In this document: positions 38,744-62,713 of the stretch, piece by piece
Numbering within the stretch: position 1 is the first letter of the stretch
Layout of the letters: each line of letters begins with the position of its first letter
Origin: Actinomycetota bacterium
GTDB lineage: Bacteria > Actinomycetota > JAICYB01
Assembly: GCA_040905525.1 (NCBI GenBank)
Contig: JBBDRJ010000018.1
Coordinates: 8,512 to 72,511, forward strand
Direction: 5' to 3'
DNA: 64,000 nt
Made by a program: the position numbers and the translations under genes
Notes under the pieces: generated by a model
What the model saw: the letters and a program-made list of their open reading frames with translations, nothing else
What the model was told of the DNA's origin: nothing
Database searches by the model: none

Positions 38744-39874
38744 ATGACTGATACGGCGCGTAAGCCGCAGACCATCGAGGACCTTCAGCAGCAGACCCGC
38801 GTTTTCTCGGACTGGGCGTCCCCGAAAGGGATGAACCACGACATCCTTCCCTGGCGCCTGTGGGACAAGGGCAAGAAGCTCCACTGGGATCCCGCCGACC
38901 TCGACTTCACACAGGACGCGAAGGACTGGGCGAACATTCCGATGGAGCAGCGCCTGATGCTCGCCGGACTCGCCAACGGTTTCATGGTCGGCGAGGAGGG
39001 CGTGACCCTCGACATCATGCCGCTCGTCTTTGCGATCGCCGACGAGGGCCGTGCCGAAGAGACGCTGTTCCTCACGCAGTTCGCCTACGAAGAGGCCAAG
39101 CATGTCGACTTCTTCTCGCGTTGGTTCAAGGCCATCGGTGCCGATCCGCTCGAGATGCGCGCACTCGCGCGCTCGAACCAGGAGGCGCGCGGCGTTAGGC
39201 TTCCCGACCCCGAACAGCCGGACGGATTGTTCGAGTCGATCCTTCCGCGCACGATGCGCCGTGTACTCACCGACCGTTCGCCCGAAGCCTTCCTCGACTG
39301 CTCGGTAACGTACAACCAGTTCATCGAGGGCTGCCTGGCGATCGCCGGCTACAAGATGTGGAAGCAGATGTTCGACACGTTCGGCGTCATGCCGGGTCTG
39401 CGCAAAGGTCTCGGCCACATCCAGGACGACGAGCGCCGGCACATCGCATACGGCACTTTCCTGTGCCGCCGCATCATCTCCGAGAACAACGAGCTGGCCG
39501 AGTTCGCCGCGGAGCGCATGTACGACCTGCGCGACCACTACCTCGAGGTGTCACCGGTCGCTCGCGCCGCCGGTGGGATCCCGTCCAACGGCGACGGCCC
39601 CAAGAAGCGGTTGTCGGCCGACCAGATCATCGCCGAGGCGCGCAAGCGGGCCGAGGAGTTCGCGGCCAGTGCCGGTGGGAACGGTGACGGTGCCGGTGGT
39701 GGCGGCTACGGCGGCGACGGTGACGGCGACTTCATGCTCTTCGGCCAGGTCATGCTGAAGCAGGTCGACCGGCGCATCGAGCTGCTACGCAACGCTGCGA
39801 AGATCGACTCGGCGACGGCCAAGAGCGGTGCGGGGGCCGAGGAGATCGAGCTAGAGCTCGAGAACGTCTCTTAG
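38744..39874 (+). CDS. R2-like ligand-binding oxidase (R2lox, Mn/Fe)
   Basis: WDPADLDF, GEEGVTLD, EEAKH, VTYNQFIEG, DERRH; AGGGGGAG RBS. Confidence 0.9.
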   Translation: MTDTARKPQTIEDLQQQTRVFSDWASPKGMNHDILPWRLWDKGKKLHWDPADLDFTQDAKDWANIPMEQRLMLAGLANGFMVGEEGVTLDIMPLVFAIADEGRAEETLFLTQFAYEEAKHVDFFSRWFKAIGADPLEMRALARSNQEARGVRLPDPEQPDGLFESILPRTMRRVLTDRSPEAFLDCSVTYNQFIEGCLAIAGYKMWKQMFDTFGVMPGLRKGLGHIQDDERRHIAYGTFLCRRIISENNELAEFAAERMYDLRDHYLEVSPVARAAGGIPSNGDGPKKRLSADQIIAEARKRAEEFAASAGGNGDGAGGGGYGGDGDGDFMLFGQVMLKQVDRRIELLRNAAKIDSATAKSGAGAEEIELELENVS

Positions 39875-39877
39875 CGG

Positions 39878-40219
39878 TTGGTCGAAGACCCGCGCGAATC
39901 GCGGGAGCCCGACCTTAGGTTCAGCCTGGCCAACGAGCGCACGTTCCTTGCGTGGGGCCGCACGTGCCTGACGTTCGTGGCGACGGGACTCGTGCTTGCG
40001 CGCGTCGTTGCTCCGGAAGACGACGTGACGGTGTGGGCCGGTGTCGTCCTGATCGTGCTCGGCGCCCTGCTCGGTGTGGTTGCGTACCGCTCGTACCGGC
40101 GTAACGATCGCGCGATCCGTGAGCACACACCGATCGCGCCGTCGCGGTTGCCGCTGGTGCTGCTGATGACGATCGCGTTGGCCGCCGTAGCGGCCGTCGC
40201 ACTCAGCCTGCGCAGCTAA
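39878..40219 (+). CDS. DUF202/YidH-family small membrane protein
   Basis: EPDLRFSLANERTFLAWGRT plus 3 TM. Confidence 0.9.
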   Translation: MVEDPRESREPDLRFSLANERTFLAWGRTCLTFVATGLVLARVVAPEDDVTVWAGVVLIVLGALLGVVAYRSYRRNDRAIREHTPIAPSRLPLVLLMTIALAAVAAVALSLRS

Positions 40220-40355: not shown

Positions 40356-40811
40356 CTAACCCTCGTCGCCGCGTGCGCTGAAAGCGAACAGCCAGCGCTG
40401 TTTGCGTTGCGCGAAATACGAGATGACATCGTGGGTCGAACGTCGTCCTTCCTTGGACAACGTCACGGACTCGTGGACCTCGAGCAGCGGGACGGTGCGC
40501 GAACGCAGCAATCGCGTCTCCTTCGTCGATATTCGAAGAACTTTGCCCTGATTCCTCACCTGATCGCGCATAAGCGTCGCGAACGCCGAGGCATCGCGAC
40601 CGGGTGGCTCGGTCATCGCTTCGAACACCTCGGCCCATCTCTCGTCGCGCACGAGCTCGTGGAACCGGTCTACGGCCTCGCGTTGCTTGGCCACGTCGGC
40701 CGCGGGATCGGCCGGCCCGGTGAAGCGGACGAAGATCGAAGCCGCAACGATCACGGCCGCCGCCGCCGCACCGATCGGCGCGAATACGGAACGTCGGCGC
40801 CTTTCGCTCAT
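40356..40811 (-). CDS. Small membrane-anchored protein (possibly NTF2-like), coupled to the upstream lipase
   Basis: MSERRRR + TM, then AVDRFHELV..W.EVFE; ATG overlaps the lipase stop. Confidence 0.7.
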   Translation of the reverse strand: MSERRRRSVFAPIGAAAAAVIVAASIFVRFTGPADPAADVAKQREAVDRFHELVRDERWAEVFEAMTEPPGRDASAFATLMRDQVRNQGKVLRISTKETRLLRSRTVPLLEVHESVTLSKEGRRSTHDVISYFAQRKQRWLFAFSARGDEG

Positions 40812-41971
40812 CGATGACGACCGATCGCATTGAGGATCGCATCGAGGATCGTGACCCGGCCCCCGAGCTCGGGTTCGTCGACCATCACCCGGTCGAGCGT
40901 CACCGGGATCGAGGTGTGCACGTTGGGGATGTCGAAGTGCTCGGCGATCAGGTCGGCACAACCGGCTCGGCCTTCGCGCGGCTTGCGGCCGCACGACGCG
41001 ATGATGTCGCCGATCACGTCCGCGCCGAGCTCGATGCGCGCGCGGTGGGAGATGTCGAGCGCGTCTTCGCCCGCGTCGACCTCCGGTGTGAAGCGCTGTC
41101 CGCCGAGCTCGGGGAGCTCCCGCGGATCGGGGTCTCCGGGAAGCAGGCCGAGATCGCCGAGCGAGGGCAGCGCGAACTCGGGCAGGTCGTAGGTCAGCAA
41201 TCTCCGCCCGGCTACCAGACGGATGTCGCCCCAGAACGTGTAGTAGCTGACGTTTCGCGGAACCTCCATCGGCGCTAGCGCACGGAACAGCGCGCTGCGC
41301 GGCCGGAGGTCCATCGAGGCGGGACGCTTCAGGTCGACGGCCGATGCGGCCGCCGTCACCGATTGCAGCAATTCGGCGACGCGCTGCCCGAACACGCCCT
41401 CGAAGCGCCGGGGGATCTCGCCCGCGAATGCATAGCCCCAAGATCCGGACGCCGCGGCGTGGAGCATCACGACCGCATCGACGCGACGCTCGGCTTCTTC
41501 CCGATGCTCGGCCAGGTATGTGCGGATGATCGCGCCGCCCATGCTGTAACCGATGAGGACGACGCGACGTCCCGCGTTGGCCGCGACCTCTTCTATCTCG
41601 AGAGCGAGCTTTTCCGCATTCGGACGAACCGCGCTCTGCGAATCGTTCGGTCCTCGCGCGGCCACACCGGACTCGTCCGCCTCGGCCTTGTCCTCTATGT
41701 AGCGGAAGACGCACGGACTTCCGTTTCCCCATCCACGATCGTCCTGAGCGTTCTCCTGGCACACATCGGAGTTCGGATACTCGGACGCGACGGCCTCGAG
41801 CAGCGACTGGAACTGTCCCGGCCCACCGTCGGCGCTTGGCGTTCCCGTGTCGGCCGCGTTGGATCCCATCCCGTGAACGAAGATCACGGGCGGCGCGCCG
41901 GAAGACTGTTGCGCGGATACAGCGGGGAGTGAGGCCACGGCGAAAACGGCTGCTATGAGGAGACTCCCCAT
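40808..41971 (-). CDS. Secreted alpha/beta-hydrolase (lipase/PGAP1-like)
   Basis: Signal peptide ending VSA; PVIFVHGMGS, LIGYSMGG, late NVH. Confidence 0.82.
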   Translation of the reverse strand: MGSLLIAAVFAVASLPAVSAQQSSGAPPVIFVHGMGSNAADTGTPSADGGPGQFQSLLEAVASEYPNSDVCQENAQDDRGWGNGSPCVFRYIEDKAEADESGVAARGPNDSQSAVRPNAEKLALEIEEVAANAGRRVVLIGYSMGGAIIRTYLAEHREEAERRVDAVVMLHAAASGSWGYAFAGEIPRRFEGVFGQRVAELLQSVTAAASAVDLKRPASMDLRPRSALFRALAPMEVPRNVSYYTFWGDIRLVAGRRLLTYDLPEFALPSLGDLGLLPGDPDPRELPELGGQRFTPEVDAGEDALDISHRARIELGADVIGDIIASCGRKPREGRAGCADLIAEHFDIPNVHTSIPVTLDRVMVDEPELGGRVTILDAILNAIGRHR

Positions 41972-42006
41972 GCGACGCACGACTGATGCTCTACCATGTG
42001 CCAGCC

Positions 42007-43368
42007 GTGCGTGTCCCACGCGCGTTTCGAGCAGCGCTGGCCGGACTTGCTGCCGGCTACCTCGCCTCATTGATCGCCGCGATGTGGCTGCGCGCGTCGA
42101 CTTCGGACGCCCAGCTCGTCTGGAAGCTCGTTTCACCGCTGAAGCTCGCGTCGTGGATCCTCGCTTCGGCCCATGCCGTCCCCTTGGTCATCCGTAGCGC
42201 CGCCGGACTCACCGCGCCGGAGGCCGCCGGTTCCGTCGGACGGCTGAGCGACGTCCTCGGCAGCGAGGACGTCGCGTTCTCCTTCTCCGTCCTGCTCGTG
42301 CCGATCTCGATCCTCGCGATCACCGGCATAACCGTCGCTCTCTTCGTCAGGTGGGCGGGCCCATCGTCTCCCAAGCAGCTGCTCAGATGGTCGGGTGTCG
42401 TCGCGCTGACCCACGGCGGCGCTCTCGCGATCGTCGCGTGGATCGCCTCGGTCGATCTTCGCTTCGAAGGTGTCGTCGCTCCCGACGTCGGGCTCGGTGC
42501 CGCGACCGGACGACTGGGCTTCTCGCTCGGGCATCAGCCGTTGGTTGCGCTCGGCGTAGGCACGGCCCTGGGGGCGGCGTTCGCGCTCGCCGGTGGGATC
42601 TCGTCTCTGTCGTTGCGCGTGACGCTTGCTCCGGTGAGCCGCGTCGTCCTGCTGGGATGGATGCGTGGACTGGGCACGGCCGCCGGGATCATCACCGTGC
42701 TGCTCGCTCTCGGGGGCCTGGTTGCGCTCGTTACCGGAAAAGCGCCGTCGTTCAGTCTGTTCGCCTTTGGCGGCTACATGCTTTGGGCCAACGCCGTGGC
42801 GGCCGGCGTCGTGCTGACCCACGGCGTTTCGATGAACGTCGCTCTCGATGCCGGACCGCTCACGGGTTGGGAACGGATGGACCTTCTGCATTTCGGCGTC
42901 GGCGGGGACGCGCCGGTGCTGCTGCCGCTCGTTGCATTGATCCCAATCGCCGCGGGTGTCGTGGCCGGGCGCTTCATCCGATCCCGCACGGAGATCTCCA
43001 ACGCCGCCATCGCGTTGCGCTTCGGGATGCTCTGGGGCCTGACGCTCGCGCTCCTCTCGCTGTTGTTGCGCGTCCACGTCCTTTCGTCCTTCTCAGTTGG
43101 TGCGCTGGATCTTGGTGGCGGGGGCGCAGCCTTCGACCCGTTGATCGCGTTGGTGCTCGGTGCGGTCTGGGGTACGGCTACGTCCTACGTCGGCGCCCGG
43201 TTCATCCCGGCCCGAGCCATCACTAAGACTGCGGATGTTTCGGGAACCGAAGACGACTCGTCGCTGTGGGCGTGCACCCGCTGCCAGATGCCGAACACGT
43301 CCGAAGACGAGTTCTGCGTTTCGTGCGGGTTACCTCGCTCCTCGGCCGACGCGCCGAACCCGCCTTGA
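42007..43368 (+). CDS. Polytopic membrane protein (DUF6350/PerM- or streptophobe-like) with C-terminal zinc ribbon
   Basis: About 10 TM; WILASAH and VLTHG motifs; tail WACTRCQMPNTSEDEFCVSCG; GTG 42007 aligns with the paralog start (ATG 41986 also possible). Confidence 0.75.
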   Translation: MRVPRAFRAALAGLAAGYLASLIAAMWLRASTSDAQLVWKLVSPLKLASWILASAHAVPLVIRSAAGLTAPEAAGSVGRLSDVLGSEDVAFSFSVLLVPISILAITGITVALFVRWAGPSSPKQLLRWSGVVALTHGGALAIVAWIASVDLRFEGVVAPDVGLGAATGRLGFSLGHQPLVALGVGTALGAAFALAGGISSLSLRVTLAPVSRVVLLGWMRGLGTAAGIITVLLALGGLVALVTGKAPSFSLFAFGGYMLWANAVAAGVVLTHGVSMNVALDAGPLTGWERMDLLHFGVGGDAPVLLPLVALIPIAAGVVAGRFIRSRTEISNAAIALRFGMLWGLTLALLSLLLRVHVLSSFSVGALDLGGGGAAFDPLIALVLGAVWGTATSYVGARFIPARAITKTADVSGTEDDSSLWACTRCQMPNTSEDEFCVSCGLPRSSADAPNPP

Positions 43369-43397
43369 TAGCCTTGCTCAGCTTTCGCCTCTAGGGG

Positions 43398-44453
43398 GTG
43401 CGGTTGTTCCTTCTGACGCTGCGGGACCTGCAGTTCCGGGCCGTTCGCTTCGGTATCGCCATCATCGGAACGGCGCTGGTGTTCTCGATGGTGCTGATCA
43501 TGTCCGGACTGTCGGCGCGTTTCCGCAACGAGCCTCGGATCACCGTTGAAGGCATAGGTGGTGACCACTGGGTTGTCGCCGAAGGTGTAACGGGAGCTTT
43601 CACATCGGGCGCCACGATCCCGACGTCTTTGGCCGATGACCTCGAGGCAAACGGGGCCGACGAAGCCGATCCCGTGGCGATGGTGCGGCACACGGCCGAG
43701 GGCGATACCACGACCGACGTGTTCCTCCTCGGTCACGAGCCCGGCGGTATCGGCACGCCCGAGGCATACGAAGGCGAAGCAGAAGTCGATTCGGGAGCGA
43801 TCGTCGCGGCCGAGGAGACGAGGTTCGGCGTCGGCGACACGGTCAAGATCAGCGGCGAGGACTTCGAGGTGATCGGCCTGACGCGGAGCAGAACGATCTT
43901 CGGCGGAACGCCGATCCTGTTCATGGACCTGGCCGACGTGCAGCAGCTCGTCTACCAAGGTCAGCCTGTTGCCACATCCGTTGTCGTCAAAGGCGAGATG
44001 CCAACGATCCCGGATGGTTTCGAGGCCAAGACGACGGAGGAGACGTGGCAGGACGCGCTTCGTCCTTTAGAGAAGCCCGTCGGCGCTATCGACGTCGTGC
44101 AGATCCTGCTGTGGCTCGTGGCCGCGACGATCATCGGTGCCGTCGTGTATCTGTCCGCCCTCGAGCGGCGGCGCGACTTCGCGGTGATGAAGGCGGTCGG
44201 TGCATCGTCGCGCGGACTGCTGGCCGGCCTGGCCGCTCAGTCGATCCTCATCGCGTTGGTGGCGGCGCTCGTCGCCACCGGCATCCAGCAGCTCCTGGTA
44301 CCGGTGTTCCCGATACCGATCGAGGTGCCGGCCGGTGCGTACATCCAGCTGCCGATCCTGGCCTTGCTCGCCGGCGCGCTCGCATCGCTCGGCGGCCTGC
44401 GCAAGGCCGTGAACGTCGACCCGGCGCTCGCGTTCTCTGGACCGGGGGGCTGA
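43398..44453 (+). CDS. FtsX/MacB-type ABC permease
   Basis: N-terminal TM, large external loop, 3 TM with ERRRDFAVMKAVGA. Confidence 0.9.
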   Translation: MRLFLLTLRDLQFRAVRFGIAIIGTALVFSMVLIMSGLSARFRNEPRITVEGIGGDHWVVAEGVTGAFTSGATIPTSLADDLEANGADEADPVAMVRHTAEGDTTTDVFLLGHEPGGIGTPEAYEGEAEVDSGAIVAAEETRFGVGDTVKISGEDFEVIGLTRSRTIFGGTPILFMDLADVQQLVYQGQPVATSVVVKGEMPTIPDGFEAKTTEETWQDALRPLEKPVGAIDVVQILLWLVAATIIGAVVYLSALERRRDFAVMKAVGASSRGLLAGLAAQSILIALVAALVATGIQQLLVPVFPIPIEVPAGAYIQLPILALLAGALASLGGLRKAVNVDPALAFSGPGG

Positions 44454-44454
44454 G

Positions 44455-45693
44455 ATGCCCGATCTCGAGATCCGCGACCTGACGATCGAGTACTCCAAGG
44501 GCGGCTACGTCGTCCGTCCGATCGACGACCTGAACCTGCACGCTCCCGACGGCGAGCTCGTAGTGCTGCTCGGTCCGTCCGGTTGCGGAAAGACCACGTT
44601 GCTGTCAGTTCTCGGCGGGATCCTCAAGCCGACCAAAGGCCTCGCACTCATCGGCTCGACGAGCATCACGCACCTGGACGGCAACAACCTCAACGAGTAC
44701 CGCCGCCGCGGCGTGGGCATCTGCTTCCAGGCGTTCAATCTCATCCCCTCGCTCACCGCTCTCGAGAACGTCGCGGCACCGTTGCTCATCTCCGGCGTTT
44801 CGGGGTCGCAGGCGAAAGCTCGGGCCAGTCAGCTCCTGGCGACGGTGAACATGACCGAGCGCGAGCACCATCGCCCGGGCAACCTGTCCGGTGGCCAGCA
44901 GCAGCGCGTCGCGATCGCGCGCGCTCTCGCCTACGACCCTCCGTTGCTGCTCGCCGACGAACCGACGGCCAACCTCGACTACATCCAGGCCGAGTCGGTC
45001 ATCAGGCTTCTCCGTGAGCTGGCCGGGCCGGGGCGGCTCATCGTGGTGTCGACCCACGACGACCGCATGGTTCCCATCGCCGACAAGGTCGTCGAGCTCG
45101 CGCCGCACTTCCGGGCCGACACCGGGCCCCCGCAGCGCATGTCGTTCGATGAGGGCCAGACGATCTACGAGCAGGGTGAGCGGGGCGAGCTCATCTACGT
45201 GATCGGCCAGGGCCAGGTTGCCACCGTACGCGTGCGCGACGACCGGACCGAGGAGCCGGTTTCGAAGTTCGGTCCGGGCGATTACTTCGGCGAGCTGGGT
45301 CCGCTGCTGGATTTCCCGCGCGAGTCGACGGCGCGTGCACTGACCAAGGTGTCCGTCACCGCGTACGGTCAGCGGGATTTCAAGGAGCAGATCCTGAACC
45401 CGCAGAGAAGGCGGGAGCCGGAACGTCCGTCGATCATCGGCAGCATCGGCGCTTCGCAGATAGAGAACATCCGGCCGTCTCTGATCGGTTCGGTGCAAGC
45501 GCGCGAGATGCCGACGCCGGCTCCGCGTGCTCCGGCGGCTCAGCCGGTAGCGTCTCAGGCCACACCTTCACAACCATCTGTGGTGACGCCGGCCGGCGCG
45601 CCGCTGAAGTTCTGCGGGAACTGCGGGACACCGCGCAACTCCGGAGACAAATTCTGCGGAGTGTGCGGACGCAGCTTCCCGGTCGGCGGCTAA
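44455..45693 (+). CDS. ABC ATPase + cNMP-binding domain + Pro-rich linker + zinc ribbon
   Basis: GPSGCGKT, LSGGQQQR, LADEPT; IYEQGE..GDYFGELG..PRESTARA; KFCGNCG..DKFCGVCG. Confidence 0.9.
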   Translation: MPDLEIRDLTIEYSKGGYVVRPIDDLNLHAPDGELVVLLGPSGCGKTTLLSVLGGILKPTKGLALIGSTSITHLDGNNLNEYRRRGVGICFQAFNLIPSLTALENVAAPLLISGVSGSQAKARASQLLATVNMTEREHHRPGNLSGGQQQRVAIARALAYDPPLLLADEPTANLDYIQAESVIRLLRELAGPGRLIVVSTHDDRMVPIADKVVELAPHFRADTGPPQRMSFDEGQTIYEQGERGELIYVIGQGQVATVRVRDDRTEEPVSKFGPGDYFGELGPLLDFPRESTARALTKVSVTAYGQRDFKEQILNPQRRREPERPSIIGSIGASQIENIRPSLIGSVQAREMPTPAPRAPAAQPVASQATPSQPSVVTPAGAPLKFCGNCGTPRNSGDKFCGVCGRSFPVGG

Positions 45694-45694
45694 A

Positions 45695-46831
45695 TCACCA
45701 GCGGTCGGTCGGCGGCGCTGTGGAGCCGCAGTGCTGGCAGAAGCGGTCGGTGCCGATCCGCGGCCCCCGGCACGTCGGGCACCAAAGGATGCGGGCTCCG
45801 CAATTCCCGCAGAAGATGTCCACGGGATCGACGGTGCCCACGCAGCGCGGACAGAACAGGTTCGTCGGCGGTGAATGCGGCGGAACGCTCACCGGCCAGC
45901 TCGGCGTGTCCCCGGTCGCGGCCTGAACCGCACCCGGCGACGTGGGCGTTCCCGGGCCCTTGTAGAGCTGGAATCCCTCGGCCGGCTCCGCGGTCGACGT
46001 CAACGGGCGTCCCGCGGCCGCGGCGTGCAAAGACTCGACGAACGCCAGAGCCGCCGGATAGCGCTCGGCCGGGTCCTTGACCATCGCGCGATGGAGCACG
46101 ATGTCGATCTCGGGGCGTAGTGCCCTGTTCTTTTCGATCGCGTTCGGGGTTTCGGCGTTCGTGTGCTGCATCATCACCGCCAGCGGGTTGTCCGCGAGGT
46201 ACGGCGGATCGCCCGTCAGGCACTCGAAAGCCACGCAACCGAGCGCATAGAGGTCGGCACGGAAGTCGAGCGTTTTTCCCGCAGCTTGTTCCGGTGCCAT
46301 GTACTCGGCCGTTCCCATCCACTGTCCGGTCCCGGTCATGCCGCGCGAGCCCATGTCCTTCGAAAGGCCGAAGTCGGAAAGGTAGACGTGGCCGGCGTGG
46401 TCGATGAGAACGTTGGCGGGCTTCACGTCACGATGGACGAAACCCATCCCGTGCGCGTAGTCGAGGGCGCGCGCGACATCGGTGAGGATGTGCACGGCAT
46501 CGGCGGGAGGCAGAGCGCCGCGGCGTGTGATCACCGAGCTGAAGGTCTCTCCATCTACGAGCTTCATGGCGAGGAAGGCGAAACCTCCGTCTTCGCCCGC
46601 TTCGTACACCGGGACGATGTTCGGGTGCTCGAGCCTCGCAGCGTTGACGCCCTCGAGCTGGAAGCGCTGGAAGAACTGTTCGTCGGCGGCCAGGGCCGGG
46701 TTCAGGACCTTCAGAGCAACCGGACGATCCAGACGTAACTGGATGGCGCGGAACACGCTCGCCATTCCGCCCTTGCCGAGGAGACCCTCGACTCGGAACC
46801 CGCCTACCGTGGTTCCCGGCTCTATGCTCAC
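45695..46831 (-). CDS. Soluble Hanks-type Ser/Thr kinase with C-terminal double zinc ribbon
   Basis: GKGGMASV, VALK, HRDVKPAN, DFG, GTAEYMAPE; four CxxC in the tail; no TM or PASTA. Confidence 0.95.
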   Translation of the reverse strand: MSIEPGTTVGGFRVEGLLGKGGMASVFRAIQLRLDRPVALKVLNPALAADEQFFQRFQLEGVNAARLEHPNIVPVYEAGEDGGFAFLAMKLVDGETFSSVITRRGALPPADAVHILTDVARALDYAHGMGFVHRDVKPANVLIDHAGHVYLSDFGLSKDMGSRGMTGTGQWMGTAEYMAPEQAAGKTLDFRADLYALGCVAFECLTGDPPYLADNPLAVMMQHTNAETPNAIEKNRALRPEIDIVLHRAMVKDPAERYPAALAFVESLHAAAAGRPLTSTAEPAEGFQLYKGPGTPTSPGAVQAATGDTPSWPVSVPPHSPPTNLFCPRCVGTVDPVDIFCGNCGARILWCPTCRGPRIGTDRFCQHCGSTAPPTDRW

Positions 46832-46871
46832 AGGTCGCTTAGCTCCATCCGGCTACTAGCATGACCAAACC

Positions 46872-48203
46872 ATGCGCGTGGGGGGAAGAGCCGCCGCGGC
46901 GGCGCTGGCCGGACTGCTCGTCGGTCTGGCCGTTTCCTGGGTGGCGGCGGCCTGGCTGCGCTCGGCCACACCGGAGGCCAATCTGCTGTGGGGCATCGCG
47001 CCACCTAGCAAGGTCGCCATCTGGACCCTGGCCGGAGCCCACGGCGCGACGATCCAGATAGAGGCGGGGGCCGAGGTCGACGAGGGCCTGAGGGACATCG
47101 GCGACCAGATCGGGGACATCTTCGGTCGGGACGATCCCATCCCCGACGCGCCGAGCGGCGACTTCAGCGTTCAGCTCGCTCCGCTGACGATCCTGGCGAT
47201 CGTGGGGATCGCGATCGCCCTGGCCATGCGGGGGTCGGGCGCCCGAGGTTTGGGCGACGTCGCCGTTGCCGCGGTGGTTGCCGGCGCGGTCAACGGGATC
47301 GGCTTGGCCGCGCTCGCTGCGGCATCTCAGGCGCGTCTCGGGTTCGACGTGCAGATCGTGCGCGCCGGTGTTGAAGCGAGCGTTGCGCCGGCGGCGAGCC
47401 TCGTAGTGGGATTCGTATGGGGTGCCGTGTTCGCGGCTATCGGCACGCTCCGACTGCCGTCGGTTGCTCAGCATCTATCGGACCGCATGCGCACCGTGGG
47501 GGCCGGGATATCGAGGGGCGGATGGGTCGCCGCGCTGACGGCGATCGTCTGTCTGGTCGTTCTGGGGCTTGCCCAGCGCGGCAGCGGTGGGATCGACGTC
47601 GGCATCGATGCGCAACTGACACCTCTTGGGATCGTCCTGCTTGGTTTGAACGTGGTTGCCGCGGCCGCAGTGCTCGCTCACGGCGCGCCGATGAGCATCT
47701 CGTTGGATGCCGGACCGCTGAGCAGCTTCACGACTCTCGGTTACATGCCGGAGGGCGCCACGCTCTCGCCCGCGCGCTGGCTCTTCGTTCTCGTCCCCGT
47801 GCTCGGAGGTATCGCCGCAGGCCGCGCGATGCGGCGCCGCCTCGGTCCCGGTTCGGGTTCGACGGCGCTGGCCTTCGGTGTGGTGTGGGGGATCACGCTG
47901 GCCGCCTTGTCCGCGCTGCTTCGTATCCGTGTGCTGTCGAACTTCGAGATCGGCGCCTTGGAGGGAGGCGGCGGCGCAACGATCCAACCACTGCTCGCCC
48001 TCGGCCTCGGTTTCGCGCTGGGCACGATCTTCTCGTACGTCGGCCTGATTACCGGAGGAGGATTGGCCGAACTGGGGAAGCCAACGCCGAATTATTCGAT
48101 GCAGGATTCCCCAGAAGAGCCATCGACGAGATGCGGCAACTGCGGCCGGCCCTTGCCGCCGACAGATCGCTTCTGCAGCGCGTGCGGATCGCCGGTGGTA
48201 TGA
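46872..48203 (+). CDS. Polytopic membrane protein, paralog of 42007-43368, with C-terminal zinc ribbon
   Basis: WTLAGAHG, VLAHGAPMSISLDAGPL, LLRIRVLS; tail RCGNCGRPLPPTDRFCSACG. Confidence 0.78.
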   Translation: MRVGGRAAAAALAGLLVGLAVSWVAAAWLRSATPEANLLWGIAPPSKVAIWTLAGAHGATIQIEAGAEVDEGLRDIGDQIGDIFGRDDPIPDAPSGDFSVQLAPLTILAIVGIAIALAMRGSGARGLGDVAVAAVVAGAVNGIGLAALAAASQARLGFDVQIVRAGVEASVAPAASLVVGFVWGAVFAAIGTLRLPSVAQHLSDRMRTVGAGISRGGWVAALTAIVCLVVLGLAQRGSGGIDVGIDAQLTPLGIVLLGLNVVAAAAVLAHGAPMSISLDAGPLSSFTTLGYMPEGATLSPARWLFVLVPVLGGIAAGRAMRRRLGPGSGSTALAFGVVWGITLAALSALLRIRVLSNFEIGALEGGGGATIQPLLALGLGFALGTIFSYVGLITGGGLAELGKPTPNYSMQDSPEEPSTRCGNCGRPLPPTDRFCSACGSPVV

Positions 48204-49909: not shown

Positions 49910-50767
49910 CTAGCTCTCTGTCTTCTTGCGAGCGGCCGGCTTCCTCGCGCGGCCGTTGCCGCGAACCGTGACCTTCACGCCGTCGATCGTTCCGGTGACC
50001 ACGCCGCGCACGGCGTCGACCGCGGTCTGACCGAGGTCCCTGGCGCCGTTAACGGCACCCGTCGCGGCCGCCGATGCGGCGTCCTCGACGTTGAGACCAA
50101 TCTCCTTGGCCGTGTCGATCGCGCCGACGACGGCTGCGCGCGCGACCGAGCGCAGATCCGTACCGACTTCGCCGGCACCCGTGACAAGACCGCTGGCCGT
50201 GCTCTGGATCGCCGAAGTCGTGTCGGCTGCGATACCCGTCGCGCCCTTGACCACGCCGCTCACGGTTTCGCTCGCCGTCGACACCGCGTCGCCGCTGATG
50301 TCCTTGGCTCCCTGGATCGCGCCGCGTCCGATGCTGAACGCCGTGTCCTCCACGCCGAGTGCGAGCTTCTTCGTTGCCGACATCGCCGCTTCGGCCGTTC
50401 CGGCCGCCGCCTCAGCGACGTCGCCACCGATGTCCGCGGTTCCCTTGATCGCCGCGCGCACGGTGTTCGAAACCACGCCGGCAGTTACGGTCGTGATCTC
50501 GCCGACGCCTTCGATCACTCCGACGATCGTTCCCTTGAGGACGTCGATGAGACTTCCTCCGACCTCACCGACGGCTTGCAGGGCCCCGGTGATCGCTCCG
50601 GAGATCGCTCCCGTGGCTTCCTTGGCTACATCTCCCACGCCTTGCAGCGTGCCGGCCACGGTATCTCTGACGGTGTCGACGGTTCCGCCGACGACGTCGC
50701 CGGCTCCCTTGACGACTCCCGAGACGGAGTCCTTGACCTTGCGTCCTACTTCTCCAGCAGCGCCCAT
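49910..50767 (-). CDS. Gly/Ala/Thr/Val-rich protein of eleven 22-residue amphipathic repeats
   Basis: AGGAGG RBS; uninterrupted 22-aa register; basic tail. Confidence 0.85.
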   Translation of the reverse strand: MGAAGEVGRKVKDSVSGVVKGAGDVVGGTVDTVRDTVAGTLQGVGDVAKEATGAISGAITGALQAVGEVGGSLIDVLKGTIVGVIEGVGEITTVTAGVVSNTVRAAIKGTADIGGDVAEAAAGTAEAAMSATKKLALGVEDTAFSIGRGAIQGAKDISGDAVSTASETVSGVVKGATGIAADTTSAIQSTASGLVTGAGEVGTDLRSVARAAVVGAIDTAKEIGLNVEDAASAAATGAVNGARDLGQTAVDAVRGVVTGTIDGVKVTVRGNGRARKPAARKKTES

Positions 50768-58510: not shown

Positions 58511-60481
58511 GTGGGCTCAATCGTATGCCCCGTCTGTAACGCTACTGTTGGAGCTCGCGATCGGTTTTGCGCTTACTGTCGATCGCCCATTCCTTCGACG
58601 CCGGAGGAGGGTGCTTTGTGCCCGGCTTGTCGGGCAATGAACCCTACCGACTCGCAGTTCTGCGAATCGTGCGGCACGAGTCTCGTAACATCGCGCGAAT
58701 TTCGATGCCCATCCTGCGGGAGCGCATCGCGCCACGACAGTCAATTCTGCGCAAATTGTGGAGTGCAGTTGGATACCAACCGACGCTTCATCGCTGTCGC
58801 GTCCAGCCAACCTGTTCCTTCACATCTGGCGCAAATAAGACCGCCCACAGTAACCGCAGGCGCGATTCGTCTGCTGATGACGAGAGGCTGGCCAGAAGCC
58901 GTCGGTGTTGTGTTAATTGCCGCGCTGATCAGCGTTGTGGTCATGGGTCTGATCATCCTGGTTGCTGCGCTCGCTGCAACGATCGCCTCGTCGCCGGTCA
59001 GCATTATTCAGCTCGGCTCGGACTCCGATCTTTCATCTGGACTCAGTTCGGTGGGTTTGCAACTTCTGCTCGGCCCGCTGGTCCTATGGGTGGGTGCTCA
59101 TGGTGGCCTTGGGTCGGAAGTGATAACGCTGACCGGGCTTACTTGGATTTGTTTGGGCCTTTTCGTTGCGCAGCGCGTTGTTCGACGCACAAGGAGCGAT
59201 AGACCCAGAGGCGTAGTTGCTAGGGGCCTGAAGATAGCCCTGCTATACGCGGCTCTAGTTCTTGGTGCAACGTTGCTTCTCAGTGCCTTGCGTGTCGAAG
59301 GCTTGAATTTGGGTAGCGGGAACGCGGGCGCTCTCGGCGCTTCCATAAGTTTTGACCCCATACTGGCTGCGATTGTTGCCGGTTTTGCCGGGTTAGTTGC
59401 TTCGATCGGGTCTAGCGGTCTTCGTCCTGTACTGCACTTAGCCGGAATCTGTGGGGGAAACCAAACGGCGGGGGCTGGCTTAATCTCCGGAGCTGCTCGC
59501 ACGGCAATTACCTCAGCACTCTTTTATCTCGGCGTTTTTCTAATCGCGGCAATTGTCGAACTAGTAAATGTGGCTACTGGGTTGGGCGATGTCTCCTCCG
59601 GATTGGGTCGAAGTTTCCTAGGTTCGTTTATCGGCCTCGTCGCGGGCGCTGTCCTTTATGGCGGTCTTGATATTGGTCTTGGCGGTTTCGTTGTAGGAAT
59701 GAGGTTCTTCGCTGATTCATCGTCAGCATTCATAGAGCCCACTGCTTGGGTGTACTTAACGGTTGTCGCGGTACCAGTTGCAGCACTTCGTGGCGGTTTC
59801 TTCGCTGCGCGGAACGCAGAAGCGACTCATAAAGGTCGGGCAATACTCATCGGCGCGGCGACCGGTCCATTGGTGTCGGTGATGCTCTTCTTTTGGAGTC
59901 TCATACACCTATCGAGTTTTGGAGGCGGCTTTGTGCTTAGTAGCCTAGGTCTACCCCTAGTTTGGTGCAGCAGTTTCGGCGCGATTGGCGGTCTGGTGCT
60001 AGCGAACAGGTCGGGGCTGCCCGCCTCTGCCTCGGATCTCTCCAGAAGCAGAGAAGTGGTCCCACGTGCTCGTTCAGTTCCTGAATCCTCTGCCTTCAGG
60101 ACTCCGGCTCCGCCACCCCTTACGTCGAAGGCTGCGCCAGGAACACGAAAGACCTCGAGTAAGTCGTCGATTTCGTCGCCGCCGGCGAGGACCCATTCTG
60201 CTGATGTGGGGTCTGGTCGACCGACGACAGCGCATATGAGTGAGGGGTCTCTGCTCGGCCCGAACGTATCAGCTGAAATGCCACGAGATGATGTCCTTGA
60301 ATCAAACATGCCGCCGGAAAACTGTCCAGGTTGCGGACAACCGAACCCACTTAACAGCGAGTTTTGTGGGTTTTGCGGACAAGAACTATCCACACTGATG
60401 AATGTCTGCGAAAGATGTGGGTCGCTTCAACCATCGAACATATTCTTTTGTCGAAACTGTGGAGCGCGTATTGATGGTTGA
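58511..60481 (+). CDS. Polytopic membrane protein with 3 N-terminal and 2 C-terminal zinc ribbons
   Basis: Ten CxxC in five CxxC-x10-CxxC units; about 10 TM with LWVGAHGG; Ser/Pro/Thr-rich linker. Confidence 0.8.
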   Translation: MGSIVCPVCNATVGARDRFCAYCRSPIPSTPEEGALCPACRAMNPTDSQFCESCGTSLVTSREFRCPSCGSASRHDSQFCANCGVQLDTNRRFIAVASSQPVPSHLAQIRPPTVTAGAIRLLMTRGWPEAVGVVLIAALISVVVMGLIILVAALAATIASSPVSIIQLGSDSDLSSGLSSVGLQLLLGPLVLWVGAHGGLGSEVITLTGLTWICLGLFVAQRVVRRTRSDRPRGVVARGLKIALLYAALVLGATLLLSALRVEGLNLGSGNAGALGASISFDPILAAIVAGFAGLVASIGSSGLRPVLHLAGICGGNQTAGAGLISGAARTAITSALFYLGVFLIAAIVELVNVATGLGDVSSGLGRSFLGSFIGLVAGAVLYGGLDIGLGGFVVGMRFFADSSSAFIEPTAWVYLTVVAVPVAALRGGFFAARNAEATHKGRAILIGAATGPLVSVMLFFWSLIHLSSFGGGFVLSSLGLPLVWCSSFGAIGGLVLANRSGLPASASDLSRSREVVPRARSVPESSAFRTPAPPPLTSKAAPGTRKTSSKSSISSPPARTHSADVGSGRPTTAHMSEGSLLGPNVSAEMPRDDVLESNMPPENCPGCGQPNPLNSEFCGFCGQELSTLMNVCERCGSLQPSNIFFCRNCGARIDG

Positions 60482-60607: not shown

Positions 60608-62713
60608 GTGGCGCGACCTTCACCATGTCCTAGCTGCGGGCGACGACCGCTCACCCTCGAGGCCAAGTTCTGCAGGGCATGTGGAAGCACACTGGCTGGA
60701 GTGGCGAAAAGTAAGCACCGTAGGCGCTCGATTGCTCTAGTGGCAGGAGTGCTGGCTATCTCGATAGTCGCCTTCCTGTTAGTTAGCGACGTCCGGGAGA
60801 GGTCCAGTACGAGCGATAGTCATCGAACTATCGTCGGACCCAACGGCGGAATAGCACGATACGGGACGGACGTCTTCATCGAGTTCCCGGCCGGGGCATT
60901 CGATGCAAGCACACAGGTGACGATAACCGGAGCAGATCCTGACCCGTGGGAGAGAATTGCACGCGACGCGGCTGTCGAACTCATTGGACTCCCGATCGAC
61001 GTCGATGTTAACCGTCCGCTCCTAAAGCCAGCGACGCTGACGTACAGAATTTCAGCCGAACGAATGCCGGAGGAGAGTGGAGCGTTCTTTGCGAACCTTC
61101 ATGCATCTGGTGACAAGCTCGCAGCAGCATTTCTCGCCGAGGTGAATCGGGCAGATGGACACGTTTCGGTAGAGCTCAGAAGCTTCTCGATTTACGGCCT
61201 GTACCGGTGGGTAGCAGACCGCGTCGTCGAATTGGCCAAGGGAGTGATCGACGATCTAATAGGTCCCCTCAGCAAGGCGAGCTCTCCGGAGTCTGACTGT
61301 GATCCGGCCCTTCAGGGCGGCCTCTCAGTCCGAGACTCCAACATGAACGACGCGGTTCGTGCGTGCGCAGAGGAAATTGGAAACGATTCCGCAACTGTGA
61401 AGATACGGAATACGCGCGCATACCCAATTGAACTGCGAGCTGCCTCGTCGGCATTTGTCGAGGTTGAGCACGGAGCCGCGTTCGAACGCGTAGGTGCTGC
61501 TGTGAATGGAGCTGTGTCAGGTAGTTCTTCGACGCTGGTTCCCGGTCGAGCCCTTGCGCAGTCGCGAGTTGCATTTTTACCCGGAGAGAGCCATCGCTTC
61601 GTGACTGGTATCGGCACGCTTGCCCTATTGACGTCAACTCTTGAGGTCGGACTAAGTGTCGCAAGCGTTGTTTACTCCAAGTTGAGATTCGCCTCGGGAG
61701 GTTCCTCGGAAGGTGACCTGATCTCGAGCATGATTGAAGGTCTTTCGGGCGCCCAGTGTCTGGCGGACGCCATTACTGCTTTCGAGGACGTGCGAACGTT
61801 ATCGCTCGAAGTCGCAAGGTCAATCGGCAAGGTTGGTATGGAGTGCGTGCATGCCATCGGAGGCGACATCGTGCTCGGAACGATCGGCGGCGTTTTGGCC
61901 CAGATCACGGGTTTACTCGTTGGCCTGAGCAATTCGCTTGTGCAGTACTCATGGGCGATCGTTGACTCTTGGCGCGGAGACTTTTCACACGAAATTGTGG
62001 CATCCAGAGGTCGAGGAGGGTTGACTGACTCAGCTGCGACGCCAGAGCCGATCGTGCGGTCCTTCAAGGACTGTGGGCCGGTAGATATTGCTTTCGTCGT
62101 CGACAGCACCTCTTCGATGGACGAAGCAATCGAGAATGTGCGCCAACACGTGGCAGAGTTCGCCGATAGGATTGCGTCGGGTTCTAGCGGCGACTATCGG
62201 CTTGGTTTGGTCGACTTCGGTGCCGGCGTTGAGGTTCATGTCCCGTTCGAGGTCGGGAACGCGCGGGCGATCAAGACTGCGCTTGAGGGTATGCGACAGG
62301 AGAGCGGGAATCTCTTTCCACCAGAGGCATCGGACGAGGCCCTTAGAACGGTTGTCGAAACGCGTTCAGTCTCGGAGACAGGTTCAGGCAATCAGGTCGG
62401 CGATTTTGATGAGGAGTGGCGGCCAGGTTCAGCCAAGCGCCGCGTTATAGTCATCACGGACGCGCGACCGAGTGGATTCGACGATGATTTCCAGGAAGGT
62501 GTAGACGATGAGTCCCTTTGGACTGCGGCCCGCGTTGCGTCTGAAAAAGGAATCAAGGCTTCATTCCTCTTCGTTCCGAACTTCTCGAGCGAGCCTGAGG
62601 CAGAGCCGATTCTTCTGAAAGCTGCGCAGCTGGGAGGCGGGTTATTCATGAAGACTTCCGAGGATGCTTCGGACATTGCAATAGGGCTCAACCGGATGAT
62701 GAGCGATTGTTGA
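60608..62713 (+). CDS. Zinc ribbon-TM-ZU5-like-vWA protein
   Basis: CPSC..FCRACG; TM; VGPNGG..IEFPAGAF..KPATL..SFSIYGL; VDIAFVVDSTSSM MIDAS, VITDA. Confidence 0.75.
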   Translation: MARPSPCPSCGRRPLTLEAKFCRACGSTLAGVAKSKHRRRSIALVAGVLAISIVAFLLVSDVRERSSTSDSHRTIVGPNGGIARYGTDVFIEFPAGAFDASTQVTITGADPDPWERIARDAAVELIGLPIDVDVNRPLLKPATLTYRISAERMPEESGAFFANLHASGDKLAAAFLAEVNRADGHVSVELRSFSIYGLYRWVADRVVELAKGVIDDLIGPLSKASSPESDCDPALQGGLSVRDSNMNDAVRACAEEIGNDSATVKIRNTRAYPIELRAASSAFVEVEHGAAFERVGAAVNGAVSGSSSTLVPGRALAQSRVAFLPGESHRFVTGIGTLALLTSTLEVGLSVASVVYSKLRFASGGSSEGDLISSMIEGLSGAQCLADAITAFEDVRTLSLEVARSIGKVGMECVHAIGGDIVLGTIGGVLAQITGLLVGLSNSLVQYSWAIVDSWRGDFSHEIVASRGRGGLTDSAATPEPIVRSFKDCGPVDIAFVVDSTSSMDEAIENVRQHVAEFADRIASGSSGDYRLGLVDFGAGVEVHVPFEVGNARAIKTALEGMRQESGNLFPPEASDEALRTVVETRSVSETGSGNQVGDFDEEWRPGSAKRRVIVITDARPSGFDDDFQEGVDDESLWTAARVASEKGIKASFLFVPNFSSEPEAEPILLKAAQLGGGLFMKTSEDASDIAIGLNRMMSDC

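Follow-up and report, generated by a model that had tools for sequence, protein, structure and literature searches.

A zinc-ribbon subtype shared by a cNMP-binding ABC ATPase, a soluble Ser/Thr kinase and PerM-like membrane proteins in a conserved locus of uncultured Actinomycetes

The pairing of a Ser/Thr kinase with an ATP-binding cassette (ABC) system is known from Mycobacterium tuberculosis, where the kinase PknF is paired with Rv1747. The FHA domains of Rv1747 are reported to be phosphorylated, and the same source gives as unknown the function of the mycobacterial Rv0072/Rv0073-type systems, in which a permease accompanies an ATPase with a cyclic-nucleotide-binding (cNMP) domain (PMC7761784). 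Among other type VII ABC systems, HrtBA is reported to extract haem from the outer leaflet (PMC9271180) and YbbAP-TesA to couple a type VII ABC to a lipid hydrolase (PMC12646458). Mycobacterial PerM has been described as a divisome protein that stabilises FtsB (PMC6872210). Here we describe a locus of an Actinomycetota bacterium in which a permease-ATPase pair of the Rv0072/Rv0073 type lies among a Hanks-type kinase and two membrane proteins distantly related to PerM (MP1 and MP2), and in which the ATPase, the kinase and both membrane proteins end in zinc ribbons of a single subtype. The window, i.e., the whole stretch of DNA analysed, comprises 64,000 nucleotides of contig JBBDRJ010000018.1 (contig C18 of the 3.16 Mb genome G000). 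The locus occupies positions 40356-48203 and has seven genes, two on the minus strand that carry no ribbon and five others. Three poorly understood things meet in it: terminal zinc ribbons, which cap thousands of bacterial signalling and membrane proteins, actinobacterial cNMP-binding type VII ABC systems, and the PerM family.

The five ribbons of the module all read C-x2-C-x10-C-x2-C-G, with D-x-F ahead of the second C-x-x-C. They match letter for letter, and at the same places, the first-pass annotation of this DNA, which had noticed a CxxC-x10-CxxC ribbon with D-x-F on four neighbouring proteins. One is found in MP1 (residues 430-448, 43273..43329, plus strand), one in the ABC ATPase (residues 387-405, 45613..45669, plus strand), two in the double ribbon of the kinase (residues 327-369, 45725..45853, minus strand) and one in MP2 (residues 421-439, 48132..48188, plus strand). 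Since MP1 and MP2 are paralogs (34% identity, E 1e-44), these are three independent protein families and not four. The ribbons are assigned to Pfam Zn_Ribbon_1 (PF13240) or DZR (PF12773), and all five show the hallmark of these families, two C-x-x-C knuckles about 10 residues apart as well as an aromatic residue, here F, ahead of the second knuckle; zinc binding would be expected from these residues. In the scan of individual proteins, the ribbon of MP2 (29.9 bits) is alone above the PF13240 cut-off of 25, with 21.8 bits for the ABC ribbon and 15.8 for that of MP1, and the kinase DZR has 26.6 bits for a cut-off of 27.3. When the whole genome was scanned for PF13240, the ribbons of the ABC ATPase (26.1 bits) and MP2 (34.5 bits) both exceeded the cut-off of 25. 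That some of these scores stay under the curated cut-offs is due to the shortness of the domain.

Ribbons of this family cluster around the locus beyond chance. The genome has 26 PF13240 matches at E<=1, and 11 of them lie within 17.4 kb of C18. Five of these are in the module genes, and the other six belong to two genes located some 10 kb further downstream. The pattern C..C-x7-13-D.FC..C, searched over 30,192 six-frame open frames (>=60 aa), gave 6 matches, all of them on C18: the five module ribbons and one in a downstream gene. The F is a feature of ribbons in general, and the D two residues before it is what sets the module ribbons apart. Read by eye, this D is found in 5/5 module ribbons, in one of the six other ribbons of the window and in none of the 11 ribbons elsewhere in the genome, eight of which have Ala instead. 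We also searched five genomes of the family with a degenerate DNA motif for D-x-F-C-x-x-C-G, taking the reversed pattern as a control. Module genes account for 13 of the 15 matches: all 5 in G000, all 5 in G001 (MP1 remnant included) and 3 of the 4 in G003 (the ATPase and both kinase ribbons). G002 had no match and G008 had a single one, which is not in a module gene. The two off-module matches (one in G003, one in G008) are outside any C-x-x-C...C-x-x-C frame and hence are not ribbons, and the reversed pattern matched 0-2 times per genome. Among ribbons, the D-x-F-C-x-x-C-G subtype is thus confined to the module in G000, G001 and G003, the three genomes with this gene set, and it labels the set exactly. 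The generic ribbon genes inserted in the same locus of the relatives are without it.

Generic ribbons are carried by several other proteins of the genome. Three large adenylate/guanylate cyclases with AAA_16 (two also with TPR) start with one or two zinc ribbons (C6:237959-241462, C24:68787-72266, and C12:281466 onward), and a 151-aa protein (C6:265330-265785, minus strand) consists of an N-terminal zinc ribbon and an FHA domain, i.e., a phosphothreonine reader with a generic ribbon. In the window itself, a 701-aa protein (60608-62713, plus strand) has an N-terminal zinc ribbon, one membrane segment, a long unassigned middle region and a C-terminal von Willebrand A domain.

The ribbons of the ATPase and the kinase are closely conserved. 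The ATPase ribbon, with its D-x-F, is present in 24/24 proteins of the long clade (370-421 aa; the protein of the window and a fragment of 252 aa are counted here), and the next six database matches (273-330 aa) have no ribbon. Over 22 sequences, no substitution is seen at the ribbon cysteines, at D398 or at F400. As a whole, the ribbon hardly varies, and neither does a stretch of 23 residues that follows the cNMP domain; the Pro-rich linker that separates the two differs from protein to protein in both length and sequence. In the kinase, all eight cysteines, both D-x-F and W350 are invariant over six sequences, and both ribbons are present in 3/3 database relatives as well as in two orthologs. 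Across sequences down to 45-64% identity, this pattern shows strong purifying selection on the ATPase and kinase ribbons, non-cysteine positions included, with the linkers drifting. A ribbon is also present in 11/11 database relatives of MP2.

The source order is represented by 10 genomes of one family. The membrane proteins are present in 3 of 41 related genomes, and the module is kept in three genomes (G000, G001 of the same genus and G003 of another genus) and on a metagenome contig (L065). The G001 locus retains the anchored protein that neighbours MP1, a remnant of MP1, the permease, the ATPase, the kinase, MP2 and the downstream acyl-CoA synthetase, with all ribbons present, and has a ribbon-PD40 gene inserted. 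G003 retains the anchored protein, the hydrolase, MP1, the permease, the ATPase, the kinase and MP2, on two contigs that abut inside the permease gene. L065, a cut contig of 4.9 kb, has MP1 with its ribbon, a further ribbon gene and the permease, and it ends early in the ATPase. A scan of genome contigs for further loci returned the loci of G001 and G003 only, and a scan of metagenomes (with a 5-row alignment) returned a single contig, L065. For three database proteins (ABC P0017, MP P0036 and kinase P0045) the longest contig is given as 31,590 bases in each case, which hints at one more syntenic locus. In line with the earlier proposal that these genes form a module, they are syntenic in every relative that has them (G001, G003, and L065 as far as it reaches).

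The relatives show some remodelling of the locus. In G001, MP1 is cut by an in-frame stop to its last ~140 residues, with the ribbon still there (L007:7358-7768), and the gene beside this remnant encodes a ribbon-PD40 beta-propeller (L007:7771-8904). A similar ribbon gene is found at the same place on L065, and a homologous architecture elsewhere in G000 (C24:21880-23091). In G003, a GAF-adenylate cyclase lies between the kinase and MP2 (L008:2878-4065, minus strand) and a cNMP-patatin lipase between MP1 and the permease (L009:11091-12737, plus strand). The latter arrangement recalls the Rv2565-Rv2564-Rv2563 neighbourhood, Rv2565 being presumably a cNMP-patatin protein, of which the published table confirms the cNMP domain only. 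In that table, PF00027 is assigned to both Rv2564 and Rv2565 (PMC4886424). The two G003 inserts tie the locus to cyclic AMP (cAMP) and lipids. Signalling by cAMP is well represented in G000, with 22 class III cyclase matches and 12 cNMP domains in 3.16 Mb.

The ATPase-cNMP fusion itself has a wider distribution. It was found in 24 of the 401 sampled genomes of the phylum (G000 and the unpublished G121 counted). We fetched the flanks of 18 ABC-cNMP loci elsewhere, four of which are shorter than 9 kb. The permease was adjacent in 18/18, and these loci, all outside the lineage, had no ribbon (0/18), no neighbouring kinase (0/18) and no MP (0/18). This agrees with the view in the first-pass annotation that pairs of the Rv0072/Rv0073 type have no ribbon.

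The permease (43398..44453, plus strand) is of the FtsX/MacB type (Pfam FtsX 46.2 bits, MacB_PCD 36.9 bits). It has the layout of a type VII ABC permease, with four transmembrane (TM)-like segments (residues 20-38, 233-251, 274-303 and 310-334) and a large outside domain between TM1 and TM2 (residues 39-232, ~190 residues), and it matches HrtB over its full length (PDB 7w78_B, E 1e-14). Its gene abuts that of the ATPase (44455..45693, plus strand), which is a separate protein as in other type VII ABC systems and lacks any hydrophobic segment. From its N-terminus, the ATPase comprises an ABC domain (ABC_tran 118.6 bits), a cNMP-binding domain (63.7 bits, residues 229-313) fused to it as in Rv0072/Rv0073-type systems, the conserved tail segment, the variable Pro-rich linker and the zinc ribbon. 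It matches the nucleotide-binding domains of MJ0796, LolD, MacB, FtsE and YbbA (PDB, E 1e-33 to 1e-48), and its best NCBIfam matches are FtsE, LolD, DevA and MacB, all under their equivalog cut-offs. The phosphate-binding cassette of the cNMP domain is intact (F278, G279, E280, P288 and R289 invariant in 22 sequences, T292 nearly so), and the ATPase may be gated by cAMP through this domain. Modelling of the full-length ATPase with AlphaFold, based on 22 close relatives, gave an unusable result (mean pLDDT 49). By family membership, the pair would work by mechanotransmission on a substrate picked up on the outside of the membrane.

The kinase (45695..46831, minus strand; Pkinase 161.6 bits) is a Hanks-type Ser/Thr kinase that appears to be catalytically intact. 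All Hanks motifs are kept, and six sequences have as invariants K41, H-R-D 133-135, D-F-G 153-155, T166, T168 and P-E 180-181, the two threonines T166 and T168 being in the activation loop. No hydrophobic segment was detected in its Kyte-Doolittle profile (maximal 19-residue mean of 1.07), which bears out its earlier description as a TM-less kinase. Proteins of ~380 aa that combine a kinase with DZR are also represented in the Atlas by clusters from Chloroflexota (145 members, DZR in 97%) and Planctomycetota (63 members, 95%). The Pfam scan revealed no FHA domain in the seven proteins of the locus, and the three FHA matches of the genome are on contigs C3 and C6, with zero on C18; the first-pass annotation was correct in stating that no FHA domain is present here.

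MP1 (41986..43368, plus strand) and MP2 (46872..48203, plus strand) are polytopic, as indicated by their TM-like segments, and both end in the ribbon. Neither reaches the cut-off of PF19877 (30.8 bits), the family named PerM in the Pfam 38.1 of the Atlas: MP2 scores 13.6 bits (E 0.039; 13.2 in the genome scan) and MP1 has no match. We therefore call them distant PerM-like proteins and not members. The homology of their membrane domain to bona fide members is supported in three ways. A ribbon-free profile of this domain retrieved 25 proteins among 1.84 billion representatives, and the most distant of these pass PF19877 (36.9, 33.5 and 32.5 bits) and carry an N-terminal ribbon. Profile-profile comparison of MP1/MP2 with PF19877 members (hhalign) gave a probability of 98.9% (E 2.5e-17, 297 columns). 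Finally, MP2 is placed in the Atlas near clusters named "Cell division protein PerM/zinc-ribbon" (feature score 0.91, structure TM 0.71-0.73), and one PerM-like cluster of the Atlas has 227 members, 60% of them with PF13240. The AlphaFold model of MP2 has a mean pLDDT of 81, and Foldseek found no match to it in the PDB at E<=0.001. No PF19877 match in the whole of G000 reaches the cut-off (the best, on C17, has 18.5 bits), so that the ribbon-bearing MPs may be the only PerM-like proteins of the lineage. By analogy with PerM, the MPs may have a role at the division site.

A further polytopic membrane protein of the window (656 aa, 58511-60481, plus strand) has three N-terminal and two C-terminal zinc ribbons, of which the first alone has D-x-F. 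We considered it as a paralog of MP1/MP2 and rejected this, as BLASTP aligns the ribbons only and hhalign against the MP profile gives nothing. The C-terminal membrane part matches the profile of the PerM-like proteins with N-terminal ribbons (97.2%, 118 columns). The protein was not found in G001, G002 or G003 and thus stands outside the conserved module.

Two minus-strand genes open the locus. The first (40356..40814) encodes a protein of 152 aa that has a single hydrophobic anchor at its N-terminus (TM-like segment, residues 10-28), no Pfam family and a weak SgcJ/EcaC-like NCBIfam match (E 0.005). It is found next to MP1 in G001 and G003 and is a conserved neighbour of the module. The second (40808..42136) encodes a secreted alpha/beta-hydrolase, lipase- or esterase-like (Pfam Abhydrolase_1, LCAT and PGAP1-like around residues 172-232), with a hydrophobic signal-like segment at residues 56-74; its true start is likely near 41971, at this segment. 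A 57% identical ortholog is found at the same place in G003. With its start at 40356, the module as delimited in the first-pass annotation includes these two genes, neither of which carries a ribbon. Beyond the locus, an R2-like protein, resembling the small chain of ribonucleotide reductase, and then a DUF202 membrane protein (38744-40219, plus strand) are both conserved upstream of the module in G001. On the other side, a 285-aa repetitive protein rich in Ala, Gly, Val and Thr (49910-50767, minus strand) has a faint phasin-like match only and is 88% identical in G001.

We favour, tentatively and as something short of an even chance, the view that the module is a lineage-specific elaboration with a ribbon-recruited kinase. 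The domain identities, the synteny, the ribbon conservation and the exclusiveness of the subtype from which it starts are established. An actinobacterial pair of the Rv0072/Rv0073 type would have been elaborated in one small order of uncultured Actinomycetes, where it would have acquired three neighbours: a soluble and intact Hanks kinase with a double ribbon, and two paralogous PerM-like ribbon proteins. The ATPase would have gained the same D-x-F ribbon subtype at the end of a long flexible linker. The ribbons would then serve for targeting in the cytoplasm and keep the kinase, which has no membrane segment, at the ABC complex, either by binding each other or through one common partner. Phosphorylation and cAMP, the latter via the cNMP domain, would jointly control the ATP-driven mechanotransmission of the permease. 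By analogy with HrtBA and YbbAP-TesA, the output would most likely be the extraction or hydrolysis of a hydrophobic envelope compound, or the activation of the adjacent secreted alpha/beta-hydrolase, with the PerM-like proteins as accessories. Both the recruitment of the kinase and the nature of the substrate are predictions. The former builds on a shared constraint or common binding function of the ribbons, which is suggested because these end flexible linkers, are conserved beyond the cysteines and share a subtype absent from every other ribbon of the genome. The conservation pattern, together with the loss of MP ribbons in G003, suggests the ATPase-kinase pair as the core and the MPs as accessory.

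Several observations weigh against this view. The shared tail suggests that the proteins are brought together, a contact that we predict from sequence. Prediction of the complex of the tails (ABC 318-412 and MP2 400-443, with kinase 275-378 as partner and four Zn) scored 0.02 for a mark of 0.32, which is evidence for neither side. The co-occurrence of ribbon, kinase and MPs amounts to one event, in three genomes of one family, with no independent repeats. In G003, the ATPase and the kinase retain their ribbons but both MPs end without one. Gene order is kept there even so, and MP ribbons are therefore not required for whatever holds these genes together. The co-retention of ribbons expected from the first-pass annotation holds for the ABC ATPase (24/24) and the kinase (3/3) but fails for the MPs, both of whose ribbons are gone in G003. 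A different PerM-like family (family tally: 20/26 genomes, 7 unpublished ones included) has an N-terminal ribbon on 5 of 10 genes, so that ribbons on this membrane family come and go. We also rejected the idea of a general theme of PerM-like proteins beside kinases, since 0/11 published loci of this different family had a kinase in the fetched flanks. The kinase gene lies on the strand opposite to its neighbours and is therefore not co-transcribed with them, and the hydrolase was not found in the G001 locus. Finally, the same general ribbon occurs on unrelated proteins of G000 (three cyclases, an FHA protein, a PD40 propeller and a nuclease), and capping so many of them fits a generic role.

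This last point leads to an alternative in which the ribbons are generic caps that do not bind each other: each would target its protein to one site or ligand (the inner membrane face, a divisome component, nucleic acid), and the genes would be neighbours through a shared envelope or cell-division process, with PerM-like and FtsEX-like components. The reported role of PerM as a divisome protein that stabilises FtsB (PMC6872210) is in line with it, as are the further ribbon genes inside the locus in G001, G003 and L065, the frequency elsewhere of PerM-like proteins with ribbons and of kinases with DZR, and the loss or variability of the ribbon on the MPs of G003 and in the other PerM-like family. 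However, generic caps leave unexplained why the subtype of the five ribbons is found on no other ribbon of the genome, nor on the generic ribbon genes inserted in the locus of the relatives, and why the ATPase gained a ribbon only where a kinase adjoins. We regard this alternative as somewhat unlikely.

Two other accounts seem weaker to us. The ribbon segment could have been copied between neighbours, or inherited through the duplication of the MPs, with no shared function and with kinase and ABC system uncoupled. The strong purifying selection on the ATPase and kinase ribbons, which extends to non-cysteine positions while the adjacent linkers drift, and the gene order kept between genera argue against such a coincidence or neutral spread, which we find quite improbable despite several facts that accord with it: MP1 and MP2 being paralogs, one of their ribbons is inherited and not independent; the lineage is narrow (MPs in 3/41 related genomes); the kinase is on the opposite strand; and the genome has ~20 ribbon genes, such that three independent ones within seven genes are unlikely but not impossible. 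Alternatively, the four-Cys sites could be sensors of zinc availability or oxidative stress through which kinase, ATPase and MPs are all switched at once, as proposed for the rubredoxin domain of PknG, which is described as possibly involved in redox sensing (PMC9344462). Each ribbon does have four invariant cysteines, but the metal site of PknG is, in that description, a rubredoxin domain among the domains beside the kinase domain (PMC9344462), whereas the ribbons of the window are on linkers of ~45-70 residues that are partly variable, which makes tethering a better fit than allosteric control. The Pfam scan showed nothing in the locus that points to metal or redox metabolism, and we hold a metal or redox switch to be very doubtful.

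A bolder form of the reading in which the ribbons recruit the kinase is that the D-x-F ribbon is a dedicated address code that assembles the kinase, the ABC ATPase and the PerM-like proteins into an envelope machine controlled by cAMP and phosphorylation. We think this unlikely. If true, the very common PF13240-type ribbons that bacteria have on cyclases, FHA readers, kinases and membrane proteins would serve as assembly tags that can be exchanged for one another, and the subtype would specify the partners. One ribbon subtype that marks exactly one conserved gene set makes a clean and cheap test case for ribbons as assembly tags. If they are such tags, a widespread domain would be explained, and one could begin to understand how a mechanotransducing ABC machine is reached by cAMP and Ser/Thr phosphorylation. 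If they are not, the locus is an ordinary lineage-restricted gene cluster.

The first-pass annotation did not recognise the locus as a described system. Its parts are in fact each a known architecture, but their conjunction and the shared ribbon subtype are new. Already known are the type VII ABC with a cNMP domain, the kinase with DZR and the PerM-like protein with a ribbon. The papers searched describe neither a cNMP-ABC ATPase with a fused ribbon, nor this set of genes, nor a ribbon subtype specific to such a module. None of them connects zinc ribbons with cNMP-ABC systems or has a name for the gene set, and DUF6350 was not mentioned among the matches listed.

The closest described systems are Rv0072/Rv0073 and Rv2563/Rv2564 of M. 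tuberculosis, which have, as reported, the same four-helix permease of the FtsX/MacB type with an outside domain, beside an ATPase-cNMP protein (PMC7761784). In contrast with the module of the window, which has all three, none of the 18 loci of this type found elsewhere has a ribbon, a kinase or a PerM-like neighbour. The permease and the ATPase also match other type VII ABC systems (HrtBA, PDB 7W78; YbbAP-TesA, FtsEX, MacB and LolCDE), whose ATPases have neither a cNMP domain nor a ribbon, whereas the ATPase of the window has both. The hydrolase gene next door is a feature shared with YbbAP-TesA, as described in PMC12646458. However, the window hydrolase has an alpha/beta-fold and, so far as tested, belongs to a family other than that of TesA; the G001 locus lacks it. 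MP1 and MP2 share membrane-domain homology with PerM (Rv0955, PF19877) and the "PerM/zinc-ribbon" proteins, a family that often bears ribbons, but the ribbon is N-terminal in the nearest bona fide PF19877 members and C-terminal in MP1 and MP2.

PknF-Rv1747 likewise pairs a Hanks kinase with an ABC system whose transporter has docking domains. There the docking is through FHA, whereas the locus of the window is without FHA and its candidate docking element is the zinc ribbon, present on both kinase and transporter. The soluble DZR kinases of Chloroflexota and Planctomycetota have the same combination of kinase and C-terminal DZR, at a similar length and with no membrane segment. The metal module of PknG is described as a rubredoxin domain (PMC9344462), in contrast with the C-terminal tethered ribbons of the window kinase. 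A last comparison is with CdpC of Haloferax volcanii, whose zinc ribbons are reported to bind proteins and membranes. They are small and terminal, as in the window, with a long disordered linker connecting them, and zinc-site mutants are reported to lose FtsZ1 binding, i.e., binding is zinc-dependent (bioRxiv 10.64898/2026.07.16.738847). CdpC is archaeal and its likeness to the ribbons of the window is one of architecture; as reported, it shows that ribbons can be specific protein-binding tags.

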